Shown here in pieces: positions 3,680 through 30,311 of a DNA stretch of 56,019 nucleotides; within the stretch, counting starts at the first letter, position 1; each line of letters starts with the position of its first letter. This stretch comes from a virus (Duplodnaviria; Caudoviricetes). The translations under genes were made by a program, and so were the position numbers. The notes beneath the pieces are model-generated. The model saw nothing but the letters and a program-made list of their open reading frames with translations, made no database searches and was not told the DNA's origin. Location: positions 1 to 56,019 of the IMG/VR virus record IMGVR_UViG_3300036402_000107. One strand, 5' to 3'.

Positions 3680-3753
3680 TTACAATGCCACATGGACCTC
3701 TTTACTTACGGCTGGCGGGGCGGGCGAGGACTAAACGTCTGCGTACCTCTCGC

Positions 3754-5178: not shown

Positions 5179-5243
5179 GCCTCGAGGCGTCCTAACGTAA
5201 GAGACCACTAGGGGGAAGACACAAGGAAAGAAGGACAGTTACC

Positions 5244-5771: not shown

Positions 5772-5848
5772 CGCAGGACTCGACCGAAACGCGTAAGAGT
5801 GAAGGCCGGTGACGGCCACGAACCGAGACAACGAACAAGGACAGTACA

Positions 5849-8763: not shown

Positions 8764-8777
8764 GAGAAGCAAAGCCA

Positions 8778-10365: not shown

Positions 10366-12636
10366 ATGTCAGAGCAGGAACGCTCCGTAACTTTCAAGAT
10401 GATCATGCAGGAGCTTGTCTCCGAGGCAGCACAGAAGGCCAGTGCTGCGATGGTCAAGACCACCGAGGACGTGAAGAAGGCCGTAGCAGCGGCCAACACC
10501 ACGACCACGGAGATGACCAAGACCGTCGACGAGGCGGCGAGGAAGTTCGAGAACACCAAGGTCGGCGTCGAGAAGACCGCCGAAGCCGCCAAAGTCCGCC
10601 TGATCCCCGCGATGAAGGAGGTCGCCAAGGAGGCGGGCAAGGCGGCGACGGAGACGGGCAGGATCAAGGATGAGGCCGAGAAGGCCACCAAGGCTACGGG
10701 CGGTCTGTTGGCCGGAAGCAAGGAGGTCGGCGACCAGATCCAGAAGATCACCAAGGTCTTCGCCATCGCCGGTGCCGCCGTCAAGGGCGTGGAAGCGGCG
10801 TGGCGTGGCGTGCAGCTCGTGCAGGCGATCGTCTCCAACGACTTCGACAAGCAGGTGGTCGCCGCCAACCGCCTGCAGAGCGTCATCGAGAGCCTGCCCG
10901 GGGGCGGTGCCGTGGTCGGCATTGGTGCCTCGATCAACAATCTGTTCACCGGGAACAAAGACTACGTCGAGGATCTGGAGCGGGCGAACAAGAAGCTCGA
11001 GGCCCACACCGAGCGGATGAAGACCGTGGGCGAGCAACAGAAGCAGATCAACGACGCCGCCAAGGGCTACCTCGAGTCCCTGAACGGGCAGGCCGACAGC
11101 GTCTTCCGCACGCAGGCTGAGATCAACGCCCGGAGTCTGGTCGAGCTTCGCAAGCAGCGTGACCTGATCGCCGAACGGATGGCCGGCACCTTCTCGCCCG
11201 CACAGCGTACGCAATTCCTGAAGGACGCCGACCAGATCATCGACCACATCGCGAACCGGCAGACCAGCGAGATGGCCCTCGCGTGGACGTCGGCCAACCG
11301 AGAGCTGGAGGCGGAGAACCTCAAGCTGATCGGCCGGACGGCGGAGGCAGACCGCGTCACCTTCAACAACTCGCTGCAGGAGAAGCAGATCGCCGCCGCG
11401 AAGATGGGCGACCGCTTCGCGGCACTGCAGGAGAAGATCAACACCGTCCTGCTCGCCGCCTTCGACAAGGAAGCGAACCGCAAGAGGCAGGAGTTCCTCA
11501 CCGGCTTCGACGCCGACCTCGACGCCCGTGCCCTCCGTGCCACGGGAGACCCGGCACAGGGGAGGCGGGCCGACACCGTCGAGCTGCAGTTCCGGCAGCA
11601 GCGGCAGCGGGTCGAGCTGAACCGCTCCATGAACGAGCAGGGCGTCGGTGCCGCCGATCAGGGGGCGATGCGTGGCCAACTGGAGAGCGTGCAGCGTCTC
11701 GAGCTTCAGCACCAGAAGGTCACGCAGGCGATCGACGCCAGCAGCGACGCCGAGCAGCGATTCGCGGAGAAGATCGAGGCGGCGAACGCTCTGGCAGGCA
11801 GCGGCAAGATCTTCGACTTCGAGGCACAGGATAGAATCAAGGACGCACAGGCACGATACAACGCCGAGATCGAGAAGACGATCGCCCTGCTCAAACAGAT
11901 GCAGGCACAGTCCACCGACCCGGCACAGCAGGACGCGATCCAGCGGCAGATCGACAACGTACAGACGTCCCAGATCAAGGCCAACGATCAGGTGCAGTCG
12001 TTCGCCAAGCAGAGTGCGTCAATCCTGCAATCGTCGCTCGAGCCAGCCTTCGCCGGGATCATCGACGGCACCATGTCCGTGAAGGATGCTTTCAAGGGCA
12101 TGCTGAAGAGCATCGCCAAGGGCTTCGCTGAACTCGCCGCTCAGCTTCTCACCAACCTGATCATCAAGAAACTGATCATGGCCGCGATCGGCGGTGGGAG
12201 TGGGGGTGGCGACTTCAGCGGTGGCGGCAGCACCTATGAGGGCGGGGGCGGCGACTTCGCCGGTGGTCAGGGCTACGCGGAGGGCGGACTCGTCACCGGC
12301 GGCGTCAAGGGCGTGGACTCCGTCAACGCCAAGCTGATGCCGGATGAGTACGTGCTCACGCCGCAGATGGTTCCCCACTTCGGCCTTGGCTACCTCGAGG
12401 AGCTTAGGCGTCGCGTCCTCTCGGGGACGGCACCGGTGCCCCGCACTACGGCGGTGGCTGCGTTTGCCACGGGAGGCCCGGTCGTGGGCTCGAGCGTGGG
12501 CACCAGCGTCTCGGGCTACCCGATCCTCCCCGCCGACGAGAGCACGTCCGACAGGCTCTTCGCCGGTGGCCCGAACGCCCTGATCTCCCACATCGGCAGG
12601 AACCGGGACGCCGTTCGCCGAGTCCTAGGCATCTGA
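10366..12636 (+). CDS. Tape measure protein
   Basis: 756 aa, Ala/Gln-rich and helical; C-terminal 'YAEGGLV.GG..GVDSV.A.L...EYVL', 'FATGG.V'. Confidence 0.85.
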   Translation: MSEQERSVTFKMIMQELVSEAAQKASAAMVKTTEDVKKAVAAANTTTTEMTKTVDEAARKFENTKVGVEKTAEAAKVRLIPAMKEVAKEAGKAATETGRIKDEAEKATKATGGLLAGSKEVGDQIQKITKVFAIAGAAVKGVEAAWRGVQLVQAIVSNDFDKQVVAANRLQSVIESLPGGGAVVGIGASINNLFTGNKDYVEDLERANKKLEAHTERMKTVGEQQKQINDAAKGYLESLNGQADSVFRTQAEINARSLVELRKQRDLIAERMAGTFSPAQRTQFLKDADQIIDHIANRQTSEMALAWTSANRELEAENLKLIGRTAEADRVTFNNSLQEKQIAAAKMGDRFAALQEKINTVLLAAFDKEANRKRQEFLTGFDADLDARALRATGDPAQGRRADTVELQFRQQRQRVELNRSMNEQGVGAADQGAMRGQLESVQRLELQHQKVTQAIDASSDAEQRFAEKIEAANALAGSGKIFDFEAQDRIKDAQARYNAEIEKTIALLKQMQAQSTDPAQQDAIQRQIDNVQTSQIKANDQVQSFAKQSASILQSSLEPAFAGIIDGTMSVKDAFKGMLKSIAKGFAELAAQLLTNLIIKKLIMAAIGGGSGGGDFSGGGSTYEGGGGDFAGGQGYAEGGLVTGGVKGVDSVNAKLMPDEYVLTPQMVPHFGLGYLEELRRRVLSGTAPVPRTTAVAAFATGGPVVGSSVGTSVSGYPILPADESTSDRLFAGGPNALISHIGRNRDAVRRVLGI

Positions 12637-16373: not shown

Positions 16374-18412
16374 TCGCAGTAATGTACGTTCTGGGCATCA
16401 CCTCGCTGGTCTACATGGTCGTTTACGCGGTCGTCTCGACGGCGATCTCCTACGGCATCAGCTACTTGCTCGGCAGGATGAACAAGCCGAGACAGCAGAC
16501 CGCACAGGAGTCTCAGCCGACGCTCTCCACGCGTGGTTCCCGCCTGACCCTCCTGCTCGGCCGTCGCCGCGTCGCCCCGGTCGTGCCGTGGGTCGGTGGC
16601 CGCACCGTCAAGAAGAACAGCAAGGCACAGTACTACAAAGAGAAGGGGATGCACGCAATCTGCCTTGGCCCGATCGATGCGATCCTCGAGATCTACGACG
16701 GCAGCAAGAAGATCCTCACGCCGACCATCGGCCCGCTCTACCGGGCGACGACGCCAGCCGGGTCACAGTTCACGGTTGAAGACGTCGGCACCTTCCGCGT
16801 CTACTGGGGCGAGAACGAGCAACCCCTCGACCCGATGCTTTACGAAGAGATGGGCATCGGCAGCATGTGGCCCGGCGTCGCCTACGTCGTCTGGGACAAC
16901 AAGGCGGTGAACCCGGGGTGGATCTGGAACGACGTACAGTACGTGGTCGAGCGGATCTTGACGACCGAAACCAATCTGACCGACTCGATCCCCCACCTCC
17001 CCCGCACGACGCGTCCCCGCCGTGGGGCGATCGACGACAGCGGCGTCAACCCCGCTCACGCGATCTGGTACTTCCTCACCGCCCCGAGTCCATACGGGCT
17101 GGGCGTTCCGGCTCAATGGCTCGACGGCGGTGCCTTTGAGTACCTAGGGCAGCTGTGCGTGGCGGAGCACCTGCCCGTCAACATACTGGCGAGGGACGGC
17201 GTCAACGGCGACCAAGTCCTCAGCGAACTCATGCAGGAGGTCGGCTTCTTCATCACGCAGGTCGGCGAGAAGTTGGTGCCGATCGTCGTCCGCCCCCCGG
17301 GCAACACGACGCTCCCGCAGATCACCATCGACGCACAGCAGCAGCCCCTCCCCGAGATCACGAGGCAGCACGGCGAGACGACGCCGACGCGGAGCATGTA
17401 CCGCATCTTCGACGAGGAGATGGGCTGGAAGCTCTCCGACCTCAACGTCGACAACGACGCCGCCGCCCGCTCCCGGGGTGCTCAGCAGTCCAAGGAAGTG
17501 CAGCTGCAGAACGTCACCAACAGGCTCACCGGCACCGAGATCATGCAGCGTATGGTGCGGGACGACTCGATCGACGGCGAGACCTACAGCTTCGAGCTGA
17601 TGCGGGGTGCCCGCGACCTCTGGCCCGGTCAGCTCTTCGTCGTCCCGAACTTCGGCACGCTCCGCGTCGCCAGCAAGAAGCCGAGCTTTATGAACTCAAC
17701 GGTCAGCATCGACGCCGTTCTGGAGAACTACGGGATACGGCTGCACGACCGGTACGTCGACGGCGTCGGCGACCCCCGCACCGACGGCATACAGCCCGTC
17801 GCCCAAGACCCCTATGTGCGTCTCTTCATCGTCCCCGAGGCGATTCTCAGCGTCGGCTCCCTCTCGATGTGGGTGCTCCGCGTCCGTGCCCACGGCGGGA
17901 TCGTCAGTGCAGAGGTTATGTTCAGTGCGACCGGTGCGAGCTACGCCCGGGTCAACCGCGACGAGCCGCACGTGACCGCCGGGACGATCAACCGCCCGAT
18001 CCTGATCGACGAGGCGACCCACAACGGAGGAGTGCTCGACGCCGCCCTGAGCTTCACGCCCTACAACGGCGACACTGACGAGATCGACGACCTCGCTGGC
18101 AACGACGCGGAGTGGGAGGAGGGCGACCAGATCGCCGTGATCGACGACGAGGTGTTCCTTGTGCAGAGGCTCGCACCGGTCGAGGGCGGGTTCAGGATCG
18201 ACGGCTTCCGCCGGGCGGTCTGGGGCACGGTGCCCGCAAACCACCTGCAGGGGACACCGGTCTACATCTTCAGGATCTCCGACCGCATCACCTACACGAG
18301 GCACCTCGTCCGTGCCGGGAACACCCTGCACGTCAAGACCCTGCCCTACACTTCCACCGACGAGATGACCCTCGCCACCGTCGCCGACCACGTGATCGCC
18401 TTCCCGGCGTGA
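16370..18412 (+). CDS. Central tail tip/host-specificity protein (gpJ/GTA g15-like)
   Basis: 'PGVAYVV', 'VNPAHAIW..LT...YGLG', 'IDDEVF', 'RAVWGT.P..H..G'. Confidence 0.75.
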   Translation: MIAVMYVLGITSLVYMVVYAVVSTAISYGISYLLGRMNKPRQQTAQESQPTLSTRGSRLTLLLGRRRVAPVVPWVGGRTVKKNSKAQYYKEKGMHAICLGPIDAILEIYDGSKKILTPTIGPLYRATTPAGSQFTVEDVGTFRVYWGENEQPLDPMLYEEMGIGSMWPGVAYVVWDNKAVNPGWIWNDVQYVVERILTTETNLTDSIPHLPRTTRPRRGAIDDSGVNPAHAIWYFLTAPSPYGLGVPAQWLDGGAFEYLGQLCVAEHLPVNILARDGVNGDQVLSELMQEVGFFITQVGEKLVPIVVRPPGNTTLPQITIDAQQQPLPEITRQHGETTPTRSMYRIFDEEMGWKLSDLNVDNDAAARSRGAQQSKEVQLQNVTNRLTGTEIMQRMVRDDSIDGETYSFELMRGARDLWPGQLFVVPNFGTLRVASKKPSFMNSTVSIDAVLENYGIRLHDRYVDGVGDPRTDGIQPVAQDPYVRLFIVPEAILSVGSLSMWVLRVRAHGGIVSAEVMFSATGASYARVNRDEPHVTAGTINRPILIDEATHNGGVLDAALSFTPYNGDTDEIDDLAGNDAEWEEGDQIAVIDDEVFLVQRLAPVEGGFRIDGFRRAVWGTVPANHLQGTPVYIFRISDRITYTRHLVRAGNTLHVKTLPYTSTDEMTLATVADHVIAFPA

Positions 18413-18435
18413 CGGAGGCACGGGAGCGGGTCGGG

Positions 18436-18466
18436 GGCTACCACGACCTTCCCCGGGCGTCTCGGA
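18436..18466. repeat. Dispersed repeat, copy 1 (GGCTACCACGACCTTCCC ... GCGTCTCGGA)
   Basis: 18 bp identical to 48417-48434, and both are followed by GCGTCTCGGA. Confidence 0.6.
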
Positions 18467-18655
18467 CGCTCCCGGAGGGCAGGACGGACGAACGGAGAGG
18501 GTCGAGGTGGGGGCGGGAGGAGCAGCCGGTAGGCTCACAGGAAAGCGACGAACCATCGTCAACGAAGCCATGGAACGGGCGGGACTAGTCGCGGGTCATG
18601 AGGAAGGCAAAGCCCCCTCGTCCCATCTCTGTATGGCAGCAGGAGCAACAAGACC

Positions 18656-18907
18656 ATGAGCAAGAAGGGCTTCACCGTGCCGGTATGGCAAAAGAAACAC
18701 GCACCGGTCTGCGACTGCGGTAACGTCATGTCGCCCTGCATGGTGACCGTGGACGACGAGGGCAGGAAGCCGGAGCGTCTGCCGATGTGGCTCTGCCTCG
18801 AGCCGTCCCACGTGTGCACGGCCTCGCTCTACGTCCGGGCGATCCCCGACGACGAGCTGGAGGAGCAGTGGCGGACGCCCGCTTATAAACGAAAGCGGGC
18901 TTTATAA
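18656..18907 (+). CDS. Small Cys-rich hypothetical protein
   Basis: AGGAG upstream; CxC and 'WLC....HVC' suggest Zn binding. Confidence 0.55.
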   Translation: MSKKGFTVPVWQKKHAPVCDCGNVMSPCMVTVDDEGRKPERLPMWLCLEPSHVCTASLYVRAIPDDELEEQWRTPAYKRKRAL

Positions 18908-18946
18908 TCGGGGGGACTTGCGTCAACAGACCCCTTGTGGTATAAT
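18883..18946 (+). promoter_or_regulatory. Early sigma70 promoter P1 with upstream palindromic box
   Basis: TTATAAA-N11-TTTATAA (18883-18907); TTGCGT(18918)-17-TATAAT(18941) with extended TG. Confidence 0.85.
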
Positions 18947-19009
18947 GCGTCTTCGGTCGGGTTTCCCGATCGGCCGATCCGGCGGGTTCCGGGTTGAAAG
19001 GACGAGACC

Positions 19010-19435
19010 GTGCAGACGATCAAGACACTCCAAGGACAGTTTTTCCTCCTCAGCAACTTCGCCCCGACTCCCGTCAGCTTCGAGGGCGTCCTCTTCCCGA
19101 CCGTTGAACACGCCTTCCAAGCCCAGAAGACGCACGACAACGCCGAGCGTCGGCGGATCGCGAGCCTCCCCAAGCCCGGTCAGGCGAAGCACGCCGGGAA
19201 GCGAGTCAAGCTCCGGGAGGATTGGGAGCAGGTCAAGGTCGGGATCATGAAGGCGATTCTCGTCGCCAAGTTCGAGCAGAACGCAGCAGCACGGGACGTC
19301 CTTTATCGAACCGGCGACGCCCGGATCGAGGAGGGCAACCTTTGGAACGACACCTTTTGGGGCGTCAGCCTTAAGACCGGGAAGGGCAAGAACACCCTCG
19401 GGCTCCTCCTCGAAGAGATCCGCAACACGCTTTGA
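19010..19435 (+). CDS. NADAR (YbiA-like) family protein
   Basis: 'LSNF', 'FPTVEHAFQAQK', 'LREDWEQVK..IM..ILVAKF.QN', 'EGN.W.DTFWG', 'GKN.LG.LL..IR'. Confidence 0.9.
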   Translation: MQTIKTLQGQFFLLSNFAPTPVSFEGVLFPTVEHAFQAQKTHDNAERRRIASLPKPGQAKHAGKRVKLREDWEQVKVGIMKAILVAKFEQNAAARDVLYRTGDARIEEGNLWNDTFWGVSLKTGKGKNTLGLLLEEIRNTL

Positions 19436-19498
19436 GCCGAAACGCCCGAGAGGGCGTCTGCAGCGATCGACCCCGCTGCACTGACGAGGCAGGTTCCT
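19436..19498 (+). ncRNA. Type II hammerhead ribozyme HH1
   Basis: GCC-GAAAC-GCCC-GAGA-GGGC-GTC^(19458)-TGCAGCG-loop-CGCTGCA-CTGACGA-GGC-AGGTTCCT; complete catalytic core. Confidence 0.93.
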
Positions 19499-19515
19499 TG
19501 ACTCAGGAGACACCG

Positions 19516-19836
19516 ATGATTCTCGAGATCCAGAAGTGGCAGCAGGACGTGCAGGCCAAGAACCTGCACCGGGCGGACGTCGTGCACAAGTTCAGCGGCA
19601 TTAAGGTCGGCTTCATGACGCAGCAGACCTACAAGTGCAAGGGCGGTCTGGGAGCGACGTTCAAGATGTACGCCCTGCTCTCGAACGGCACCGACACCAC
19701 CTACGTCTGGTCTTCCTCGATCAACGGCGGCGACCTCACCCACGAGAACGAGCAGTGTGCTCGCCGGTGCGGGCTGGAGATCCTGACCCGCTACGTCGAG
19801 AAGCACGGCGTGCCCGGGGTTAAGCAGATCGCTTGA
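19516..19836 (+). CDS. Hypothetical protein (gene B of cassette 1)
   Basis: AGGAG 19505-19509, ATG 19516. Confidence 0.65.
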   Translation: MILEIQKWQQDVQAKNLHRADVVHKFSGIKVGFMTQQTYKCKGGLGATFKMYALLSNGTDTTYVWSSSINGGDLTHENEQCARRCGLEILTRYVEKHGVPGVKQIA

Positions 19837-19861
19837 CACCAACGCGTTCGTGTGGTAGAAT
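19833..19861 (+). promoter_or_regulatory. Early sigma70 promoter P2
   Basis: TTGACA-17-TAGAAT with extended TG. Confidence 0.8.
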
Positions 19862-19916
19862 CCGTGGTTGGGGGTCTGACCCGGCAGGTTCCGGGGTTCG
19901 AGAGGATCGGTGCTCT

Positions 19917-20180
19917 GTGTTCTTTGTCTTCGCTGAAGATCTCTGCTCCTGCCTCGTCGGCCCGTTCGAGACCCGCGAGGAGGCGGAGGGTCATCTGGCT
20001 TGGTGCCGTGACGAGCGGCACGACGGTGCGACCATGGAGGTCGTGTCTCGGTTCATCGCCGAGCGTCTGTCGCCGGACATGACGATGACCCCCGCCCTAG
20101 ACCGGGCGTCCTCCCCCGTCGCCAGCGACGCCCTGCAGCCGTGGGACGACCTCGACGCGAACGGCCGTCAGGTCTTCTAA
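19917..20180 (+). CDS. Hypothetical protein
   Basis: Downstream of P2, GAGG upstream; 'VGPFETREEA' motif. Confidence 0.5.
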   Translation: MFFVFAEDLCSCLVGPFETREEAEGHLAWCRDERHDGATMEVVSRFIAERLSPDMTMTPALDRASSPVASDALQPWDDLDANGRQVF

Positions 20181-20208
20181 ACCGAACAACAACTTAACGA
20201 AGATCAAG

Positions 20209-20245
20209 AGACCCCTCCCCGTGACCCGGGCGAGGGGTCTTGCGT
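20209..20245 (+). terminator. Hairpin/terminator before P3
   Basis: AGACCCCTC / GAGGGGTCT stem. Confidence 0.45.
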
Positions 20246-20301
20246 TATAAAGGGCGTCCGCGTCTATACTACTTGCGTTAACGCAAAAGCTGTGGTATAA
20301 T
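20245..20301 (+). promoter_or_regulatory. Early sigma70 promoter P3 with palindromic box
   Basis: TTATAAA-N11-TCTATAC (20245-20269); TTGCGT(20273)-17-TATAAT(20296), extended TG. Confidence 0.85.
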
Positions 20302-20364
20302 CCTCTTTCGGTTGCGGATTCGCAACCGGCCGATCCGGCGGTGAGTCCGGACTGAAAGGACTAG

Positions 20365-20769
20365 ATGATGATTCGCCAGTTCATTCCGATCGGCTTCGAG
20401 TTCCCCGGTGGCTACACTTGGTGCGTCGACGACGAAAAGAAGGAATCGCACGCCGTCTACCCTGACGGGTCGTCCAAGCCCGCGACTGAGTCTTACTCCG
20501 GTGACTTCCTGTCCTTTGCCTTAGATTCAGTCGATCAAGAAGTCTGGCTGGAGCTGACCCGCCCTCTCGTCTGGATCGACACCGGCCTCGAAGGCCAGCC
20601 GTACGTCGAGGTCTACGAGGTCTTCGTCTGCACCGCCGTGATCGACGGCGTGAAGGTGGCCCGGTACTCGAACCCGGAGAAGGACGAAATGGTCGAGGTG
20701 CCCGTGAGCGAGATCCGCACCGGTCGCGGGGTCTTCGCCGACAAGAACGTCTTCGACTGCTCCAAGTAA
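20365..20769 (+). CDS. Hypothetical acidic protein (gene A of cassette 2)
   Basis: GAAAGGA SD then ATG; stop abuts HH2. Confidence 0.7.
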   Translation: MMIRQFIPIGFEFPGGYTWCVDDEKKESHAVYPDGSSKPATESYSGDFLSFALDSVDQEVWLELTRPLVWIDTGLEGQPYVEVYEVFVCTAVIDGVKVARYSNPEKDEMVEVPVSEIRTGRGVFADKNVFDCSK

Positions 20770-20833
20770 GCCGAAACGCCCGCGAGGGCGTCGAGCGAGG
20801 ATTGACCTCCCGCTCCTGACGAGGCAGGTTCCT
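20770..20833 (+). ncRNA. Type II hammerhead ribozyme HH2
   Basis: GCC-GAAAC-GCCC-GCGA-GGGC-GTC^(20792)-GAGCG(A)GG..CCCGCTC-CTGACGA-GGC-AGGTTCCT. Confidence 0.93.
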
Positions 20834-20852
20834 CCTGACGGAGAATGACGAG

Positions 20853-21251
20853 ATGACCATCACCCAGATCAAGCGGAAGCACAACCCCCATCAACCCGTG
20901 GGCCGCTGGATTCGCCCCGCGAAGCGGATGGCGATCTACCTCAGGGATCGCTTCCAGTGCCTTTACTGTGGTGCCGACCTCCACGGCGTCACCGACCCCC
21001 GCCACATCCAGCTCGACCACAAGACCCCGGTGAGCAAGGGAGGCTCGAACCTCGAGCACAACGTCTTCACGACCTGCATGCGTTGCAACTGCTCGCGGGG
21101 ATCGAAGCCCTTCCGGTCGTTCGCGACCACGGGGGCGAAGCAGCGGGCCAAGCGTCAGCTCTCGCTCTCGCTCAAGCCGTACCTCGCCCTCGCCAAGGCC
21201 ATCTGCTCGGGGGCGGTCAGCAGGGAGCAGGCTCTCAGCGAGATCCGCTAG
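20853..21251 (+). CDS. HNH endonuclease
   Basis: 'RDRFQCLYCG...LDHKTPVSKGGSN...NVFTTCMRCNCSRG'. Confidence 0.85.
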   Translation: MTITQIKRKHNPHQPVGRWIRPAKRMAIYLRDRFQCLYCGADLHGVTDPRHIQLDHKTPVSKGGSNLEHNVFTTCMRCNCSRGSKPFRSFATTGAKQRAKRQLSLSLKPYLALAKAICSGAVSREQALSEIR

Positions 21252-21296
21252 CGTCCGTGAAACGACCGGGCACCCCCGGGGTGATGAAAGGTGACG

Positions 21297-21449
21297 ATGA
21301 TCTACCGAATCCTGCAAGCTCGCTTCGGCCGTTGGGGGCGTCGCCTCGCCCTCCTCTGCGTCGCAATCTGGGTCTTCACGCTCCTCTGCTGCCTGCTGGC
21401 CTTTGGCTGGCAGCTGTTAGGGCGTTATAAAAGCGGCGGGGCTTTATAG
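21297..21449 (+). CDS. 50-aa single-pass membrane peptide (not in the ORF track)
   Basis: TGAAAGG SD; MIYRILQARFGRWGRRLALLCVAIWVFTLLCCLLAFGWQLLGRYKSGGAL*. Confidence 0.5.
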   Translation: MIYRILQARFGRWGRRLALLCVAIWVFTLLCCLLAFGWQLLGRYKSGGAL

Positions 21450-21489
21450 CAGGCAGGGGATTGCGTAGGCTTACAGCCTGTGGTACAAT
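21425..21489 (+). promoter_or_regulatory. Early sigma70 promoter P4 with palindromic box
   Basis: TTATAAA-N11-TTTATAG (21425-21449); TTGCGT(21461)-17-TACAAT(21484), extended TG. Confidence 0.85.
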
Positions 21490-21556
21490 GCGTCCTCAGT
21501 CGTGGGATCACGACTGGCCGACCCGGCGGTGAGTCCGGGATGAAAGGACGTGCGAC

Positions 21557-21748
21557 GTGAGCGAGACGAACCTCCCCAAGTGGATCGAAGACCTGAAGGC
21601 GGACTTTATCGAGTGGAGCGGCGGCTTCGGCCCCGAGGAGTGCGAGGTCGATGAGATCACCAAGTACCTCGAAGTCAGCGAGATCGACGAGGACGACGAT
21701 CGATTCGGTGCCCTCTGGGATCTCCACAACGGCGAGCTTGAAGACTGA
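21557..21748 (+). CDS. Small, very acidic protein (gene A of cassette 3)
   Basis: GAAAGGA SD, GTG start; 63 aa, D/E-rich; stop abuts HH3. Confidence 0.65.
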   Translation: MSETNLPKWIEDLKADFIEWSGGFGPEECEVDEITKYLEVSEIDEDDDRFGALWDLHNGELED

Positions 21749-21812
21749 GCCGAAACGCCCGCGAGGGCGTCCGACCGAGACTAACCCCCGGTCGCTGATG
21801 AGGCAGGTTCCT
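21749..21812 (+). ncRNA. Type II hammerhead ribozyme HH3
   Basis: GCC-GAAAC-GCCC-GCGA-GGGC-GTC^(21771)-CGACCG..CGGTCG-CTGATGA-GGC-AGGTTCCT. Confidence 0.93.
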
Positions 21813-21833
21813 CGATCTCGAAAGGATCACGTC

Positions 21834-22991
21834 ATGGTTGCAGGAAAGATCACCCCCGCTGGTCACATGGTCAAGGGTCTCGACGGCGTTGAGCGTTTCG
21901 TCGCCCACGAGGCCGATCAGGACGGCCCGGTCACCGAGACGACGAAGACCCCGCGTCTCGCCCCCAAGAGCAAGGCCGAGAAGAAGGCCGACAAGGCCGC
22001 GAAGAAGGGCAAGCCGGTCGTCGAGACCGTCGACGCCGGTGGCGGCATCTTGGTCGACGTCGCGGACAGCAAGCCCGCGAAGAAGGCCAAGAAGGTCAAG
22101 ACCGCTGGCCCGCTCTCGACCGAGGTCTCCAACCCGGAGCAGGAGGAAGTGAAGAAGACGACGTGCAACCACGGCGTCAAGTCCAACGAGAGCATCCTCT
22201 GGGAGATCGCCGACAAGTACAGCAACGCCTGTGCGACCCGGATCTCTGACCCGTTCACGGGCGAGAGCACCGGCTTCGCGATGGTGCACGGCTGGGACGG
22301 TGCCGCCGAGCAGTGGCACTCCGTCCGCCCGGTGAGCGACCGGTACAAGCCGATCCGGACACAGGATCTCATCGAGATCGCCGTCGAGCGTCTGCAGGGG
22401 ACGCCGCTGATGGCCGAGAAGATCCGCACCGACCGCTTCGGCACTTCGCTCGAGGTCAAGATCCCGATCAACCGCCCGATCGAGATCGGCAAGGGCGTCG
22501 CGTTCGATCAGGGTCACCCGTGGACTCGCCACGGCGAGCACACCAAGCGGGACGTGCTCTACCCGGTCGTGAACATACGTAACGCCTACGACGCCACCTC
22601 CTCGATCATCGTCGACGTCGGGCTGTTCCGGATGATCTGCAGCAACGGCATGAAGATCATGCTCGCGGGAGTCGGTGCCAAGGCGATCCACACGAAGCAC
22701 GAGGTCGCCCGCGTCATCGAGACCATCGCCAAGCAGGAACTCACCGGCGACCTCGACTTCGTCCGCAAGCTCTCGGTCGCGAAGCTCGACGTCAAGGACG
22801 TCGCGAAGATCATGGGCGACCGCGTCCCCGAGAAGTGGCAGAAGGAGCTAGCGGAGTACGCCAAGCTCGGCGGGAACACCGCTTGGTCGTGGATGAACGG
22901 CCTGAGCTACCTGAGCACCCACGAGTATAGTCTCCTCCGCTCGCGTCAGCTTGACCCGATCATGACGGCGATTCAGAAGCTCGCCGCCTAG
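21834..22991 (+). CDS. DUF932-like protein with Lys-rich N-terminus
   Basis: 'VSDRYKPI', 'NAYDATSS....GLFRMICSNGM', 'IHTK', 'TAWSWMN..S...TH'. Confidence 0.75.
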   Translation: MVAGKITPAGHMVKGLDGVERFVAHEADQDGPVTETTKTPRLAPKSKAEKKADKAAKKGKPVVETVDAGGGILVDVADSKPAKKAKKVKTAGPLSTEVSNPEQEEVKKTTCNHGVKSNESILWEIADKYSNACATRISDPFTGESTGFAMVHGWDGAAEQWHSVRPVSDRYKPIRTQDLIEIAVERLQGTPLMAEKIRTDRFGTSLEVKIPINRPIEIGKGVAFDQGHPWTRHGEHTKRDVLYPVVNIRNAYDATSSIIVDVGLFRMICSNGMKIMLAGVGAKAIHTKHEVARVIETIAKQELTGDLDFVRKLSVAKLDVKDVAKIMGDRVPEKWQKELAEYAKLGGNTAWSWMNGLSYLSTHEYSLLRSRQLDPIMTAIQKLAA

Positions 22992-23073
22992 GGCCGAGAC
23001 CGCCGACCACGGACGCCCTCCCGACGCGGAGGGCGTCCTGCTCGTTGGTCTCAGACCAGAAGGGAAGCAGGAG

Positions 23074-23346
23074 ATGGACAAGACGAACAGCCACCGCCAC
23101 AAGTGTGCAGTGTGCGGCTTCGTTTGGCGTCACGCGAACGAGTCCCCCGGGCGTGACAACGACGTGGCCCACACGTGCCGGTGCGGCAACCAGCAGTTCT
23201 TCATCTACCGGGGCGAGGACAAGGCACAGGTCGCGACGTGCGGGCGTCCCTGCAGGCAGGGCGACCGACCCGTCCTCGCCCCCGGCGTCGTGTATCAAGC
23301 TTACTTCGGCGACCTGCACCCCGACAACAAACCCGGCGACCTCTAG
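23074..23346 (+). CDS. Small Zn-finger-like hypothetical protein
   Basis: AGGAG SD; 'HKCAVCGFVWRH...HTCRCG'. Confidence 0.55.
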   Translation: MDKTNSHRHKCAVCGFVWRHANESPGRDNDVAHTCRCGNQQFFIYRGEDKAQVATCGRPCRQGDRPVLAPGVVYQAYFGDLHPDNKPGDL

Positions 23347-23385
23347 CCGACGACCCGGCGTGACCCGGGCTGAAAGGAACGCAAC

Positions 23386-23877
23386 GTGAACGAAGCACAG
23401 AAGAAGATTCTCGAGAAGCACCCCGGAGCCCGGCTGCAGAAGCTGGTCTACGTCGGCGTCCGACCCGGCAACAAGACCAAGCGGGTGTACGGCTACGTCA
23501 AGGTCAGTGACGACGACCTCAAGTCAGGTAACCCGGTGGTCAATGCCGCACAGGCGATGTACTGGAAGAAGAGCCTCTACCCGGGCACGGCGGGGACGGT
23601 CATCGAGATCGTCATGGAGGAGGGGGCGGACGGCGTCTCGATCTGGAAGGCCGTAAACTACGTGGGCCGCTGGCCGAACCGCGAGCAGTGCGTCGCGTGG
23701 CAGGCGGAGCACGACGAGACGGTGGCCGACCTCGACAGCAAGAAGGACGCGATGCACGACTCGATCATCGAGACGCTGGCACCGGTCGCGAAAGCCTACC
23801 GACACTCGAACCGAGCGGGACGGGCCGTGCTCCTCGCCAAGGTCATCCGGTACCTTACGGCCTCGTCCTTCGACTAG
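23386..23877 (+). CDS. Hypothetical protein
   Basis: Preceded by a CCCGG/CCGGG hairpin and TGAAAGGA SD. Confidence 0.65.
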   Translation: MNEAQKKILEKHPGARLQKLVYVGVRPGNKTKRVYGYVKVSDDDLKSGNPVVNAAQAMYWKKSLYPGTAGTVIEIVMEEGADGVSIWKAVNYVGRWPNREQCVAWQAEHDETVADLDSKKDAMHDSIIETLAPVAKAYRHSNRAGRAVLLAKVIRYLTASSFD

Positions 23878-23935
23878 ACGCAACGCGTCCCGACCCCCCG
23901 ACGTACAACCCGGCGAAGACGACCGCTCTCGGGGA

Positions 23936-24004
23936 TTATAGAGAGCGGTCTTCTTTATAACGCAACAGGAAGTACTTGCGTTGACGACCAGCCTGTGTTA
24001 TAAT
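23936..24004 (+). promoter_or_regulatory. Early sigma70 promoter P5 with palindromic box (overlaps a terminator-like hairpin)
   Basis: TTATAGA-N11-TTTATAA (23936-23960); TTGCGT(23976)-17-TATAAT(23999), extended TG. Confidence 0.85.
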
Positions 24005-24070
24005 GCGTTCTCGGTCGGGGTTTCCGACCGAGCCGACCCGGCGACGAACCCGGGATGACGGAGACGACCA

Positions 24071-24376
24071 ATGACCAACGAGACTTTCAACGCCGCCTTT
24101 TCGCAGAAGTCCGCCTTTGCGGCCATCCGCTCGCTCGGACTGACCGTCAAGAAGACTGAGGACGGCGAGATCCGAGTGAACTTCAAGGGTCACAGCGAGG
24201 AGACCGCCTACTACACCACCGACCTGAAGGACGCTTACGACACCGCCCGTTCGATGGCTGCCCTCAAGGCGAGCAGCAGCCCCAAGAAGAAGTGTCACCT
24301 TTGCGGCGGCACCGACCACACCTCCTCGCAGTGCGAGTTCACCGGCGAAGCCGAAGCCACCGACATGAATCGCTGA
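24071..24376 (+). CDS. Hypothetical protein with C-terminal CCHC zinc knuckle (gene A of cassette 4)
   Basis: 'CHLCGGTDHTSSQC' = CX2CX4HX4C. Confidence 0.7.
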   Translation: MTNETFNAAFSQKSAFAAIRSLGLTVKKTEDGEIRVNFKGHSEETAYYTTDLKDAYDTARSMAALKASSSPKKKCHLCGGTDHTSSQCEFTGEAEATDMNR

Positions 24377-24412
24377 AACGAGACGACCCGCCCGTGGGTC
24401 ATGAAACGGGAA

Positions 24413-24475
24413 GCCGAAACGCCCTGCGGGGCGTCGGGCGGGAATGACCTCCCGCCCCTGATGAGGCAGGTTCCT
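24413..24475 (+). ncRNA. Type II hammerhead ribozyme HH4
   Basis: GCC-GAAAC-GCCC-TGCG-GGGC-GTC^(24435)-GGGCGGGA-ATGACC-TCCCGCCC-CTGATGA-GGC-AGGTTCCT. Confidence 0.93.
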
Positions 24476-24497
24476 CGACTCAAGAACGGAGGCCCCC

Positions 24498-25184
24498 GTG
24501 GCCAACAAGCTCGCAGCTGCTATCGCGTTCCGTCAGTACGCCAAGACCAAGACCCGCAAGGTCGGTGACGCCGTCGACGACCCGATCGCCGACAAGCTCG
24601 CCAAGGCCCAGTCCGCCGACGACATGGCCAAGCTCGCCATCGAGTCGGGCATCCCCAAGGACGTTGTCGAGGAGAAGGCCAAGAAGGCCCCGAACCCCGG
24701 TCAGTTCCGCATGACCATCGGGAACCTGATCCGTGGCGTTTACGCCCGGGTCGAGAAGTACCACACCCTCACGGGCGGGCGGGTCGATGCGGCGGACGTC
24801 GGGACGAAGAAGCTCTTTCAGGCGAAGATGGCGGAGTACCGCAAGGCCAACCGCCCCGTGAAGGACGGCCCGAAGCCCTCGACTGGGAAGAAGAAGACCG
24901 AGACCGCCAAGAAGGGCGGCAGGGTCGCTGCCTCCAAAAGCGGCAAGGGCGACGCTGCGGCGACTCCCAAGGGAGCACCCAGCAAGTCCGAGGCCGCTGG
25001 CCGTGGCAAGGGAAAGAAGGGTGGCGACGGTTCTGCCAAGAAGTCCCGCTGGCAGCGGAACGCCAGCAACAAGAAGGGCAAGCCCGCTGCTGACGCTGCT
25101 GACGGTGCGGGCGTGGGCGAGCAGGGCGAGCAGGAGGGCGGGCAGTCCAGTCTTGCCGAGGCAATTGCCGAAGCCAACAGCTGA
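24498..25184 (+). CDS. Hypothetical protein with Lys/Ala/Gly-rich basic tail
   Basis: GGAGG SD, GTG start; 'PNPGQFRMTIGNLIRG' core. Confidence 0.7.
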   Translation: MANKLAAAIAFRQYAKTKTRKVGDAVDDPIADKLAKAQSADDMAKLAIESGIPKDVVEEKAKKAPNPGQFRMTIGNLIRGVYARVEKYHTLTGGRVDAADVGTKKLFQAKMAEYRKANRPVKDGPKPSTGKKKTETAKKGGRVAASKSGKGDAAATPKGAPSKSEAAGRGKGKKGGDGSAKKSRWQRNASNKKGKPAADAADGAGVGEQGEQEGGQSSLAEAIAEANS

Positions 25185-25399
25185 TCTCGTGAACGCGTGG
25201 GCGGTGAGGCTGGGTGGCAACCCCCGCCTCACCGCCTTGTTTCTGGACGTCACCTTTAGAGCCTTCCCCGACGAGTGGTGCATGCGAGCTTTTGGCGTCC
25301 CCTACCCTCCGCTCTCCGTGGTCTTCGGCAACGGGTCACAGGAGCGGTACCAAGAGATGATCCGCCGCCCGGGAAGCTACGTGAAGAGAGACTGACCCC

Positions 25400-25999
25400 A
25401 TGGCCAAGACCAAGACCCCGAAACCCAAGAAGGATTACGGCGACGGCGAGCGACCCGGCAAAGAGCCACCGCTCGCCGTCGCCGTCCACCGGCGGAAGAA
25501 CCACGAACAGATGATCCTTGAGTGTGCCGAGCAGATCGAGCCGGGCTGTCCGCTCGACCCGATCGCGAGAGCCTACGGACTCCTGCAGGCTCTCGGCCAG
25601 ATGTACGACTCGCTCAGGGTCGCCGTCGACGAAGCGGTCGCCGACAAGATCCGTGCTGACGGCCCGTTTGTTCTCGGTGAGGAGAAGTTCTACGTCGGCA
25701 AGAAGAAGAACACCAAGCAGACCGCCACGCACTCCGACCTCTACCTGTTCCTGATGGACTTGACGGGCGGGGATACGGAGACGGTGATGAGCTGCCTGAG
25801 TTCCAACGCGTGGAAGCACGGCACGATCAAGAAGCTCCTCGAAGAGAAGCTGACGGAGGGGGCGGACGCCGAGATCGCCTTTCTCAAGCTCTTCGAGGTC
25901 AGGGAAGAAGACGAAGTGAAGACGGGCAAGCCGACGAAGAAGGACGGCGACTTGCAGCGAATCCCCGTGGCTCTCCTCAAGAGGCTACAACAGTCATGA
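25400..25999 (+). CDS. Hypothetical protein
   Basis: Typical codon usage; stop overlaps the next ATG. Confidence 0.6.
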   Translation: MAKTKTPKPKKDYGDGERPGKEPPLAVAVHRRKNHEQMILECAEQIEPGCPLDPIARAYGLLQALGQMYDSLRVAVDEAVADKIRADGPFVLGEEKFYVGKKKNTKQTATHSDLYLFLMDLTGGDTETVMSCLSSNAWKHGTIKKLLEEKLTEGADAEIAFLKLFEVREEDEVKTGKPTKKDGDLQRIPVALLKRLQQS

Positions 26000-26936: not shown

Positions 26937-27488
26937 ATGGATTCGACGAAGCGAAAGCAACAAGTGACGCCCTCGCAAGAAGGCAAGGCGACGCCGGACT
27001 GGAGCAGGATCGGCCGGAGGAGCAGGAGGAAGGGGAAGAAGTACGAGAACGTGATCGCGGGGTGCCTCCGAGACTGCATGGGTCTGAACTGGCAGACGAC
27101 GCGAAACAGCGGCCGAACCGACTTGAAGGGAGATCTGTACTGTCTCGATCGTCCGGGCTTCGTCGTCGTGGAGTGCAAGGATCGTGACACTTTCCAACCT
27201 CTGTGCATGCTGCAGGAGAATGCGGGGTTCGTCAATGAGCTTGACAAAGTACGCGACGAAACGAAAGGCCAAGGTCGTGTCGTCATCTTCTCGAAAGTCC
27301 GCCTGCTCGGCGACCTCGTCGGCGTCCTCCGCGACCCGGAGGGCAGGACGATCGACGACTTCCTCATCGGCTCGCAGCGGACGGGCATCCACGCGGGGGG
27401 CGTCCTGTGGCGGCTCGTCCGCGACGGCCTCGACTGCGACGAAGCGGAGAGACTCCTCTTCCGTGGCATCGGTGAGTCCGCAGTCTAG
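26937..27488 (+). CDS. PD-(D/E)XK nuclease, Holliday junction resolvase-like
   Basis: 'SRRKGKKYENVIA', 'GDL', 'VVECK'. Confidence 0.75.
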   Translation: MDSTKRKQQVTPSQEGKATPDWSRIGRRSRRKGKKYENVIAGCLRDCMGLNWQTTRNSGRTDLKGDLYCLDRPGFVVVECKDRDTFQPLCMLQENAGFVNELDKVRDETKGQGRVVIFSKVRLLGDLVGVLRDPEGRTIDDFLIGSQRTGIHAGGVLWRLVRDGLDCDEAERLLFRGIGESAV

Positions 27489-27972
27489 CTACGTCGCGTT
27501 GATCCGTCTAGCCCGCGACGGGCACCGCGGGGCGTGGGAGGCGATGGTGGCCCGGCTCACCCCGATGCTGCGGTCTTTGGCCCGTCGCCTTGGCCCGGTC
27601 GGGCACGAGGAGGACGCCGTGCAGGAAGCCCTGCTACGCGTCGTGCAGCAGATCGGGCGGGTCGATCTCGGCCGCGAGTCCACGGCCCGCACCTTCATCA
27701 TGAACGCGGGCGTGTTCGCGATCCGCACCTTCAACACCAAGATCATGAGGGAGAACCGACGCGACAAGCTGAAGACACACCGCACCGGCGTCGTCCAAGA
27801 CCCCGACCTCGCCGACTTCCCGCCCGTCCTGTCGCTATACTTCCGCTACATCATGGAGCACGGCACGATTCTCGGTGCCCACAAGAGCGTCGGCGACGAG
27901 TTGGGGATTCACAAGGCGTCCGCGTTCCGCCGCTTCCATCAAGAGGCGAAGACTTTCATGGAGGGACTGTGA
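27472..27972 (+). CDS. ECF-like RNA polymerase sigma factor
   Basis: 'LIRLARDGHRGAWEAMV', 'EDAVQEALL', 'TFIMN...', C-terminal 'ELGIHKASAFRR' HTH. Start uncertain. Confidence 0.7.
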   Translation: MSPQSSYVALIRLARDGHRGAWEAMVARLTPMLRSLARRLGPVGHEEDAVQEALLRVVQQIGRVDLGRESTARTFIMNAGVFAIRTFNTKIMRENRRDKLKTHRTGVVQDPDLADFPPVLSLYFRYIMEHGTILGAHKSVGDELGIHKASAFRRFHQEAKTFMEGL

Positions 27973-30311
27973 GAAGAGTAATCGTCGTCGGCGACATGCC
28001 GCAACCAGACCAGCAGCTGCAAGCCATCATGAAGGAGGTCTCCCCCGACTGTCTGTACTGGCACGTCAACGAGGTGGAGAAGTTCAAGCCGGTGACGGGC
28101 GACCTCATGGTGCCGCTCGGCAAGGCCGCGATCGAGACCGTGCTCCGCGTCGACAAGGCCAAGGTAGATGATCTCGTCGGGCAGCAGTACGACGCCAAGG
28201 TCGAGGGGGCGGACGTCAAGGTCATCTGCCAGTACCACCCCGGTTACCTCGCGAGGATGCAGGAGAAGAAGGGCGGAGCGACCGAGCGGGCGGTCAAAGC
28301 GTGGTTCGACGTGTGGGACACCGTGCAGGAGGTCTCCACGGGCGAGGAGGTCAAGATCCCTGAGGTGCTCGTCCTCACCGAGTACGAAGACGTCGTGGCG
28401 TGGCTGGAGTACCTGCGTGACACCGACCACGTGATCGGCTACGACTACGAGACTTGGGGCGTGAACCAGAGCGGGGAGAACACCGCACTCCGGCCGGAAC
28501 TGTGCACCGAGTTCGAGATCCTCACCATCGGCTGTGCCGTCGTCAGGGAAGACGGCACGTGGGACGCCTTCAGCTTCCCCTTCGACTGGCACAGGGAGGA
28601 CGGCACGTGGTACTGGACGGAGGAGCAGCAGCAGGTGATCGCCGACCTGTGGTTCGGGATCTACCTCGGCAAGAGGTCGATCGCTCACTTCTGCAAGTAC
28701 GAGCACAAGTGCAACCTCAAGCGGTTCGGCAGGACGAACGTCTCGCTCATGGACACGATGCTGGAGGACGACACCTACAACGAAGTGAACGACCACAAGC
28801 TTCACCGCGTCGGTGCCCGAATGGGTCTGCGGTGGATGCGGTACAAGAGCCTGAGCGACAAGACCCGCAAGAACCCGAAAGAAGCACCGCTGGACAAACT
28901 GCTGGAGTACAACGCCCTCGACGCCCTCTGCACGATCCTCTCGCACGTCAAGCTCGACGAACTCCTCAGCGAGCAGCAGCTCGACGGCGTGGCCCGGATG
29001 GAAGAGAGCTTCTGCTACTACCTCGCCAAGCTCGAGATGAACGGCATGCAGGTGGACGCGAACGAAGCGTCGATCGTCCGTGCCGAGCTTCGCGACGTCG
29101 AGATCCCCAAGCTGCAGCACGAGTTCAGCACCCTGCCCGAGATCCAGAAGGTGGAGCGGTGGGCACTCCGCACCATGAAGAAGTACCAGACCAAGGCGTA
29201 TCAGGAGGGACGCAAGCAGGTCGTCTTCTCCCCGAAGTCGCCGCCCATGATGAAGTACCTGTGCATGGACGTGCTGAAGCTGCCGATTCAGGAAGTCAAA
29301 GTCAACGGCAAGTACACTCTGAAGTTCGACAAGCGGACGCTCGAGCCATACGAGGAGGACGTCCCCGTCCTGACGCACCTCGTCAACCTTCGCCGCACGT
29401 CGGCGATGCTGACGGGCTTCCTCGACAAGTGGGAAGCCTTCGTCGACTCGCACGGCAAGGTGCACAGCCAGTACAACCAAGGCAAGGTCGTCACCGGCCG
29501 TCTCTCTTCGACCGACCCGCCCCAGCAGAACATACCCAAGAAGCACCGGGTGCGGAAGGTCTACGTCAGCCGGTACAAGGACGGCTGGCTCGTTAACGTC
29601 GACGTCAAGCAGCAAGAACCCCGCTTGCTCGCCGGATGGTCGAAGGACGAGAAGATGATCGAGGCGATCAACGGTGGGTACGACCTCCACGGCTTCGTGG
29701 CCAGCGAGATCTACGGCGTGCCCTACCTCGCCGACCAGACCGAGCACCGCGAGATCGGGAAGCGGATGAATCTCGGCATGATGTACGGGCAGACCGAGTA
29801 CGGGCTCGCCGCCAAGACCGGGATGACCGTCGAGGCAGCGGTGCGTCTCCTGAAGCTGTACGATCGCCGCTTCCCCCGGATCGCCAAGCAGCGTCAGGAG
29901 TGGCAGGCTTTCGCCGCCAAGCACGGCTACGCCGAAGACCTGTTTGGCCGTCGCCGCCACCTCCCCGACGCCCTCTCGAAGGACAAGTGGCTGCGGGAGC
30001 GGGCACTCCGCCAAGCCTGCAACTACCCGATCCAGCGTACCGCCCTCGTCTTCACGATGGTCTCGATGGGCGTGGCGATGCAGACCATCGAAGACGAGGG
30101 GCTCGAAGACGCGATGTGCGTCTGCGGCACCGTGCACGACTCGATCATCGGGGACGCCGCCGACGCCAAGTACCGCAAACGGCTGCAAGAGATCTTGGTG
30201 TACGGCGTGGAGATCCATAACAAGGCCGAGTACTGGAAGGACAGCGGCGTGCCCATGAAGGCGGACGTCGAGTGGGGGCGGAACCTCTACCAGCTGGAGA
30301 AGGCCGCATGA
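27969..30311 (+). CDS. polA: Family A DNA polymerase with 3'-5' exonuclease and N-terminal UDG-like domain
   Basis: ExoI 'DYET', ExoIII 'YNALD', 'TGRLSSTDPPQQNIP', motif A 'DVKQQEPR', motif B 'REIGKRMNLGMMYG', motif C 'VHDS'. N-terminal 'LGKAA...YHPGYLAR'. Confidence 0.92.
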   Translation: MRRVIVVGDMPQPDQQLQAIMKEVSPDCLYWHVNEVEKFKPVTGDLMVPLGKAAIETVLRVDKAKVDDLVGQQYDAKVEGADVKVICQYHPGYLARMQEKKGGATERAVKAWFDVWDTVQEVSTGEEVKIPEVLVLTEYEDVVAWLEYLRDTDHVIGYDYETWGVNQSGENTALRPELCTEFEILTIGCAVVREDGTWDAFSFPFDWHREDGTWYWTEEQQQVIADLWFGIYLGKRSIAHFCKYEHKCNLKRFGRTNVSLMDTMLEDDTYNEVNDHKLHRVGARMGLRWMRYKSLSDKTRKNPKEAPLDKLLEYNALDALCTILSHVKLDELLSEQQLDGVARMEESFCYYLAKLEMNGMQVDANEASIVRAELRDVEIPKLQHEFSTLPEIQKVERWALRTMKKYQTKAYQEGRKQVVFSPKSPPMMKYLCMDVLKLPIQEVKVNGKYTLKFDKRTLEPYEEDVPVLTHLVNLRRTSAMLTGFLDKWEAFVDSHGKVHSQYNQGKVVTGRLSSTDPPQQNIPKKHRVRKVYVSRYKDGWLVNVDVKQQEPRLLAGWSKDEKMIEAINGGYDLHGFVASEIYGVPYLADQTEHREIGKRMNLGMMYGQTEYGLAAKTGMTVEAAVRLLKLYDRRFPRIAKQRQEWQAFAAKHGYAEDLFGRRRHLPDALSKDKWLRERALRQACNYPIQRTALVFTMVSMGVAMQTIEDEGLEDAMCVCGTVHDSIIGDAADAKYRKRLQEILVYGVEIHNKAEYWKDSGVPMKADVEWGRNLYQLEKAA

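Follow-up and report, generated by a model that had tools for sequence, protein, structure and literature searches.

The 56,019-base virus record IMGVR_UViG_3300036402_000107 of the IMG/VR database (referred to below as the window, and analysed at its full length) carries four type II hammerhead ribozymes, HH1 to HH4, on the + strand between positions 19435 and 24475. We consider it reasonably probable (roughly 0.6) that all four are active and that they split messages between the cistrons of a genome region that is driven by host promoters and is probably early, in an uncultured tailed phage from soil: this reading is built upon the match to known hammerheads in sequence and structure, the covariation of the helices and the placement of the ribozymes between open reading frames (ORFs).

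The Rfam model for this class (RF02276, Hammerhead_II; gathering cut-off 37 bits) matches all four sites on the + strand: HH1 (19435..19498) with 40.4 bits, HH2 (20769..20833) with 37.9 bits, HH3 (21748..21812) with 36.4 bits (E 8.9e-4 over the whole window) and HH4 (24412..24475) with 45.3 bits. A preliminary description of this DNA had named four such ribozymes, predicted where they cut and put forward a comparison with Rfam: this comparison now places three sites above the cut-off and the fourth 0.6 bit under it, the low score of HH3 probably being due to its 11-nt loop I, and the predicted cuts are correct, with C17 falling at each of them (after C19458 in HH1, C20792 in HH2, C21771 in HH3 and C24435 in HH4). 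A search of 14 control genomes using RF02276 gave no matches, and none of the other Rfam families was found at E 0.5 or better anywhere in the window. Upon base-by-base reading, CUGAYGA, GAAA and the GUC cleavage triplet are present in all four copies with every core base corresponding to the consensus, and the elements follow in the same order in each: A-GCC-GAAA, stem III, U, C, the stem I hairpin, CUGAYGA, GGC and AGGUUCCU. Stem III is CGCCC/GGGCG with a 4-nt loop in all four hammerheads, closed at its base by an A15.1-U16.1 pair; stem II comprises 3 bp (GCC/GGC) throughout and is open, while stems I and III are capped by loops around the three-way junction. Stem I (6–8 bp) has a different sequence in each hammerhead yet is paired throughout, with one bulged or mismatched A required in HH2; the loop I that it carries in HH1 is AUCGACCC. 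Each of these features, from the GAAA, GUC and CUGAYGA elements to the short stem II, the shared stem III and the varying but paired stem I, had been read in the same way before and was borne out here. The 18-mer CTGAYGAGGCAGGTTCCT from the 3' half gives four exact matches and one match with 3 mismatches against 0.11 expected, and five matches were reached in none of 100 shuffles; AGCCGAAACGCCC and a 12-mer from the promoter leaders described below, each taken alone, were without significance in shuffles.

The exact 17-mer of the 3' half, scanned in IMG/VR, was found in 24 stretches with 25 matches, 21 of which are full hammerheads as judged by eye (each scoring at least 55 bits with model R1, see below), and a second scan in which the tail was left free returned at least 119 stretches. 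A sequence parser run over the window and all fetched loci found 134 unique hammerheads among the matches listed, a scope that applies to every count over the fetched loci given in the following. In alignment A3 (9 sequences), 94.2% of cells are paired, versus 78.3% upon shuffling and 32–44% when the partners are slid: stems II and III both reach 100%, and stem I reaches 92.1% with two-sided changes in 6 of its 7 pairs. Model R1 was built from A3 and run on the window together with 95 of the 141 fetched IMG/VR loci (L005–L099, with L100–L145 left out); it identified exactly four sites in the window (HH1, itself a member of the training set, scores 83.1 bits) and a total of 122 matches in these 96 sources among the matches listed. 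The resulting alignment A4 (122 sequences), which is fitted to R1 and leans towards structure, has 98.1% of cells paired versus 64.5% shuffled. At least two hammerheads are present in 18 of the 68 R1-positive sources and four to nine in 8 of them, the window included, where both counts are lower bounds as the loci are partial. Four of the loci (L053, L069, L015 and L032) hold 7–9 type II hammerheads within a few kb, part of which belong to a second subclass with 4–5-nt stem I loops and no evident pseudoknot. The AGGUUCC tail is a minority variant and occurs in none of the unique hammerheads of the free-tail sample (loci L029 and above, among the matches listed).

Loop I contains GACC in three copies and AACC in HH3, in each case opposite the GGUU of the tail: the RACC/GGUU complementarity first noted in the preliminary description thus holds in all four copies. 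The helix comprises 4–5 pairs per copy, with a fifth U-A pair possible in HH2 and HH4 and one G-U pair in each of the three GACC copies. In A3, 86.7% of the cells of this helix are paired; all members of the subclass share one tail, and the changes are consequently one-sided. A permutation test was therefore made on 59 related viral hammerheads, among the matches listed, that exhibit other tails and have 6 or more nucleotides in loop I: the best helix between loop and tail has a mean length of 4.63 bp, versus 3.46 bp with permuted tails (sd 0.109; maximum 3.83 in 1000 permutations), and a helix of 5 bp or longer is present in 32 of the 59, versus 10.2 expected. Examples of such pairs are UGGCC/GGCCA, UGGUC/GACCA and UCGCCU/AGGCGA; given this covariation, RACC/GGUU represents one of the sequence versions in which a covarying pseudoknot occurs. 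For a different type II hammerhead, mutation and rescue show that the pseudoknot is needed for fast cleavage: disruption slows the reaction by one to two orders of magnitude and compensatory changes restore it (PMC3088659).

The last base of the upstream stop codon is the first base of the hammerhead in the case of HH1 (TGA), HH2 (TAA) and HH3 (TGA), HH4 begins 36 nt past the upstream stop, from which a small hairpin separates it, and at all four hammerheads a ribosome-binding site and start codon follow 25–30 nt past stem II. All flanking ORFs lie on the + strand and exhibit a G+C content at the third codon position (GC3) of 0.82–0.91. HH1 separates a NADAR domain protein (19010..19435; PF08719, E 3.1e-27; phrog_1017; GC3 0.82) from a 106-aa ORF without family (19516..19836; AGGAG, with an ATG 25 nt after stem II; GC3 0.91), and HH2 lies between a 134-aa ORF without family (20365..20769; GC3 0.84) and an HNH endonuclease gene (20853..21251; PF01844/PF14279, 21 PHROG families). 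Upstream of HH3 is a 63-aa ORF (21557..21748; GC3 0.83) and downstream the gene for a DUF932 protein (21834..22991; PF06067, E 3.2e-7; GC3 0.91); HH4 is preceded by a 101-aa ORF (24071..24376; phrog_7884, E 1.2e-4; GC3 0.84) and followed by a 228-aa ORF without family (24498..25184; GGAGG, with a GTG 30 nt after stem II; GC3 0.85). Searches of Pfam and PHROGs at loose thresholds and of a protein atlas gave no function for the flanking small proteins beyond NADAR, HNH and DUF932. Among the matches listed, the stop of an ORF of at least 40 codons lies within 8 nt of stem II in 107 of the 134 viral hammerheads, versus 198 of 2680 random positions (7.4%), and a start codon is present within 90 nt in 124 of the 134, the median position being 27 nt downstream of stem II: the tight packing of stop, ribozyme and start is a property of the family. 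The fusion with the stop codon is unreported in the open-access text found by keyword; the term 'stop codon' occurs 0 times in the main text of PMC3088659, the supplements of which may already show the adjacency.

The ORFs that precede the ribozymes are in turn preceded by a repeated cassette of approximately 150 nt, five copies of which are found in the 18.9–24.1 kb region (alignment A1; 18870-19010, 19790-19920, 20200-20365, 21400-21557 and 23915-24071). Its first part, where a regulator might bind, consists of the inverted repeat TTATAAAG-N10-12-CTTTATAA and adjoins a terminator-like hairpin at some sites; the second is a near-consensus sigma-70-type promoter-like site with TTGCGT or TTGACA, a spacing of 17 nt and an extended -10 element TGnTATAAT; and the third is a leader, conserved and with two hairpins (GCCGAYCCGGCG...CCGG), of which the first varies and the second is CCGG...CCGG; GAAAGGA and the start codon come next. 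The promoter-like sites, all on the + strand, are P1 (18918..18946; TTGCGT, 17 nt, TATAAT with TG extension; leader to 19009), P1b (19833..19861; TTGACA, 17 nt, TAGAAT, 11/12 consensus), P2 (20273..20301; leader to 20364), P2b (21461..21489; -10 element TACAAT; leader to 21556) and P3 (23976..24004; leader to 24070). Scanning for the extended -10 element (TGKTATAAT) gave 8 matches in the window versus 0.99 expected, a number reached in none of 100 shuffles; five of these 8 matches lie in the hammerhead region, on the + strand and within a stretch of 5.1 kb. In four of the five promoter units a hammerhead directly follows the first ORF (HH1 in P1, HH2 in P2, HH3 in P2b and HH4 in P3), with the P1b unit lacking one. 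Terminator-like hairpins lie just upstream of three cassettes, at 18877-18900 (found by scan), 20210-20239 (by eye) and 23921-23960 (by eye, together with a T-tract); hairpins and cassettes together suggest short, separately terminated early transcription units. The cassette matches no Rfam family, and a scan of IMG/VR with the leader motif gave 0 matches. The match with 3 mismatches to the hammerhead 18-mer, at 19876-19893, was ruled out as a further hammerhead, because no GAAA half precedes it: these bases form the second of the two hairpins in the P1b leader, CCGG-CAGGUU-CCGG, which agrees with the hammerhead 3' half in 15 of 18 bases. This likeness could reflect common descent or a shared function of hairpins with a CAGGUU loop.

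From these results we infer cleavage in vivo, promoters that are real and early, and effects on the stability and translation of the messages, in the following manner. The hammerhead would fold during transcription, with stems III and I forming as hairpins and the 3-bp stem II closing the core, whilst the 4–5-bp pseudoknot between the tail AGGUU and loop I (RACC, which a U follows in two copies) would hold stems I and II parallel; the RNA would then cut itself after the C of GUC. This cut would free the distal ORFs from the promoter-proximal one, which keeps its structured leader. Of the two products, the upstream one is expected to reach 23 nt beyond the stop codon, ending with a 2',3'-cyclic phosphate in the stem III hairpin, which is rich in G+C; the downstream one is expected to start at a 5'-OH base that stem I already holds in a pair, and then to carry the pseudoknot tail, the ribosome-binding site and the start codon. 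Both partners of the pseudoknot (loop I and tail) would remain on the downstream piece, and the two pieces could then decay and be translated independently. Stabilisation of the downstream mRNA after cleavage, as proposed in the preliminary description, is plausible judging from the sequence and fits the anatomy of the products, where stem I pairs the 5'-OH base of the downstream RNA and the stem III hairpin forms the end of the upstream one; the idea also accords with suggestions made in PMC3088659 and PMC6765202.

Several observations weigh against this reading of active, message-splitting hammerheads. The RF02276 cut-off is passed by only three of the four copies, with HH3 the one that falls short, and the minimum-energy folds of three of the four uncleaved RNAs favour a competing hairpin or an alternative over stem II, as calculated using a folding program that cannot score the pseudoknot. 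The pseudoknots are short, with a G-U pair in three of the four, and cutting a pseudoknot from 6 to 4 bp made cleavage approximately 20-fold slower in the experiments of PMC3088659. The promoter and terminator calls are consensus matches only, and the pattern of a hammerhead after the first ORF is a post hoc one, drawn from one genome and not seen in the hammerhead-bearing Streptomyces phage VieEnRose. Whether a 5'-OH end is stabilising or destabilising depends, finally, upon the RNases of the host.

The sequence that continues the tail allows a more far-reaching reading, which we put forward tentatively and with the odds well against it. Here, the ribozyme would be a standard intercistronic part whose cut rebuilds a promoter-style two-hairpin 5' untranslated region for the distal cistron. 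A conserved CCUY follows the tail and can pair with GAGG of the core/stem II strand, leaving the loop CAGGUU: stem I would replace the first hairpin of the leader and, once the upstream fragment leaves, the freed GAGG would pair with CCUY to give the second hairpin, 14–21 nt before the start codon. Such a hairpin would trap the product, make the cut irreversible and set the context of the ribosome-binding site; if this were true, engineered ribozyme insulators would have a counterpart in nature. The CCUY hairpin is the minimum-energy fold of two of the four products (HH1 and HH4), two of the five leaders (P1 and P1b) exhibit a near-identical CCGG/CRGGUU/CCGG hairpin, and 19 of the 22 members of the AGGUU-tail subclass have CCUY after the tail. 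Among the matches listed, it follows in only 9 of the 59 other pseudoknotted hammerheads (background 6.4%) and, in a further count after the pseudoknot strand, in 5 of 53 (background 8.0%), both weak enrichments; GAGG is fixed, so the GAGG/CCUY pairing cannot show covariation. Alternatively, CCUY could pair with the downstream ribosome-binding site, an arrangement present in the fold of HH2.

Cleavage could also act in the opposite sense and lower expression, in that the 5'-OH would mark the distal cistrons for decay, or the loss of the downstream RNA would mark the proximal one, leading to attenuation or shut-off of early genes. The precedent is glmS, where ribozyme cleavage is followed by RNase decay and the 5'-OH end can act in this manner in hosts with RNase J (cited in PMC6765202). 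Close look-alikes of HH4 are present in eight Streptomyces phage records. Actinobacteria generally possess RNase J. The anatomy of the predicted products speaks for the contrary outcome: the 5'-terminal base of the downstream piece is paired in a 6–8-bp stem without a single-stranded overhang and the upstream product ends in a G+C-rich hairpin, and a paired 5' end and a 3' hairpin are the classic protective features known from work on mRNA decay in E. coli. The presence of a ribosome-binding site and start after every ribozyme further suggests that the downstream genes are meant for translation, and we judge attenuation to be unlikely.

That the hammerheads are mainly selfish or modular junction linkers, which travel with gene cassettes or promote phage recombination and have little effect on expression, appears less likely still. 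The same 17-base 3' half recurs in the 24 IMG/VR stretches described above, mostly as full hammerheads, in contigs that share no flanking genes with this phage: comparison of 16 window proteins with the hammerhead-bearing loci (tblastn) gave weak DNA polymerase and HNH matches only. Flanking genes are likewise described as 'not constant' in PMC3088659, and one neighbour gene here encodes an HNH endonuclease. The core, stems and pseudoknot are intact in all copies with compensatory changes, however, which implies selection for the RNA fold beyond DNA identity, and the HNH homologue of locus L013 is approximately 9 kb from the hammerhead of that locus. A link between hammerheads and HNH endonucleases was rejected.

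The preliminary description had further proposed that fragments between ribozymes are circularised, which would give circles of 1334, 979 or 2664 nt; this part of it finds little support, and we regard such ligation as very improbable and circularisation as the main role as unlikely. An RtcB-type ligase joins 5'-OH and cyclic-phosphate ends, the very ends predicted here, and as stems II and III are the same in all four copies the ends of a fragment could rebuild a complete hammerhead. Each interval has a promoter-like site of its own, however, and two contain a terminator-like hairpin: the HH1-HH2 interval contains P1b, the hairpin at 20210-20239 and P2, the HH2-HH3 interval contains P2b, and the HH3-HH4 interval contains the hairpin and T-tract at 23921-23960 and P3. 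A doubly cut fragment therefore needs read-through, and the ribozymes look like parts of separate transcription units. The halves of a rebuilt hammerhead would moreover be joined only by the 3-bp stem II, what lies between the ribozymes is ordinary coding mRNA, and the circular RNAs made by hammerheads that are described in the accessible text of PMC7761336 belong to retrozymes and viroid-like agents, not to phage arrays. Lastly, it is hardly credible that the motifs are inactive look-alikes, in spite of the sub-threshold score of HH3 and of some hammerhead-like phage sequences found inactive in PMC3088659 (Figure S7 legend), since those inactive examples had core deviations, whilst here all core bases are consensus in four of four copies and all four occupy the same intercistronic slot as 107 of the 134 relatives among the matches listed.

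The window of 56,019 bases is the complete IMG/VR record, with a CheckV completeness estimate of 80%, a G+C content of 62–67% and no tRNA genes found over its length; its + strand carries long ORFs with high GC3. Mapping of the window proteins through PHROG and Pfam scans gave head genes (1174-6961), the major tail protein (8619-9587), the tape measure (10366-12636) and tail proteins up to 18412, then, between 18.6 and 27 kb, a series of small genes among which the hammerheads lie, followed by a sigma-70 region 2 protein (27184-27972), DNA polymerase A (27534-30311) with SSB, a DnaB-like helicase and primase downstream of it, and the large terminase (54233-55843). The sigma-70 region 2 protein may drive later phage transcription; its ORF overlaps the start of the listed DNA polymerase ORF. 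A second listed ORF, the TTG-start ORF at 23045-23389, has the wrong G+C by codon position (second position, GC2, 0.83; GC3 0.65), and the coding frame is here more likely that of 23074-23346. The DNA polymerase shows at most approximately 25% identity to the enzymes of cultured phages, and the phage is without a close cultured relative; the sole DNA run containing positions 18400-25400 of the window is a soil metagenome, which may be the source of the record, a look-up of RNA runs for these positions gave none, and use of the DUF932 protein as query for loci related to this phage found none. When the 7-kb hammerhead region was compared with phages (blastn), matches were limited to a 170-nt piece of the NADAR gene and to HH4. 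The NADAR piece is 69–75% identical at the DNA level to genes of Xylella, Xanthomonas and Clavibacter phages; NADAR is an ADP-ribose processing family, and we presume that the ORF at 19010-19435 may be an early counter-defence gene. Xylella phage Salvo has a NADAR homologue and no hammerhead. Matches to HH4 were also seen in Roseobacter phage CRP-7, Dulem virus 39 and seven Streptomyces phage records besides VieEnRose.

The four hammerheads represent no new class: the first natural type II hammerheads were described by Perreault et al. in 2011, most examples with loop I and the 3' tail joined by a pseudoknot of 4 bp or more, and pseudoknotted type II hammerheads as well as prophage arrays are already contained in that work (PMC3088659). 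The type II hammerheads of RF02276 share with the phage copies the permuted architecture, the core, the short stem II and the position of the pseudoknot between loop I and the sequence 3' of stem II; they differ in the consensus pseudoknot, which is UGG/CCA in RF02276 and RACC/GGUU here, where the tail continues with the conserved CCUY. The prophage arrays (for example the three hammerheads around ardA in Agrobacterium tumefaciens; PMC3088659) and the Desulfovibrio vulgaris hammerheads (PMC8782182) likewise comprise several same-strand copies between varied short phage genes. Polycistronic RNA is cut by the prophage arrays both in vitro and in E. coli, and it has been suggested that such processing turns long phage transcripts into mRNAs of single genes or of operon length (PMC3088659). 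The three type II hammerheads near phage-like genes of D. vulgaris cleave in vivo (PMC8782182); processing of polycistronic RNA has been proposed for both. While the published arrays were tested for cleavage, the copies described here are known from sequence and follow the first ORF of promoter-leader units in a free phage genome. A 2019 review (PMC6765202) termed the biological role of bacterial and phage hammerheads 'largely elusive'.

A second array was found in Streptomyces phage VieEnRose (ON526983.1, 41119-48713, minus strand), where the hammerhead model gives 10 matches over 7.6 kb; 0 of the 10 are annotated, and the majority fall into the gaps that separate annotated genes. This array is unreported in the open-access text found by keyword. 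It resembles the array of the soil phage in having type II hammerheads in intergenic gaps and a stem III identical to that of HH4, and one of its hammerheads overlaps gene 72 at its end, with gene 71 following after 14 nt; it differs in its pseudoknot (GUGG/CCAC) and stem II (GGC/GCC). What is new in the soil phage is the unusually tidy layout of promoter, leader, first ORF, stop-fused ribozyme and ribosome-binding site of the next ORF. This layout, together with the family-wide packing counts, makes the splitting of messages by the hammerheads easily testable, and the 10-match array of VieEnRose offers a host-phage pair in which dead-ribozyme mutants are possible. In functional terms, the arrangement recalls the RNase III sites between the early genes of phage T7 and the RiboJ insulators, in both of which an intercistronic cut yields an upstream message that ends in a hairpin and a downstream message with a defined, context-free 5' end. 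The likeness is a functional analogy only: the phage hammerhead is natural, and it is a self-contained RNA catalyst that would need no host enzyme.

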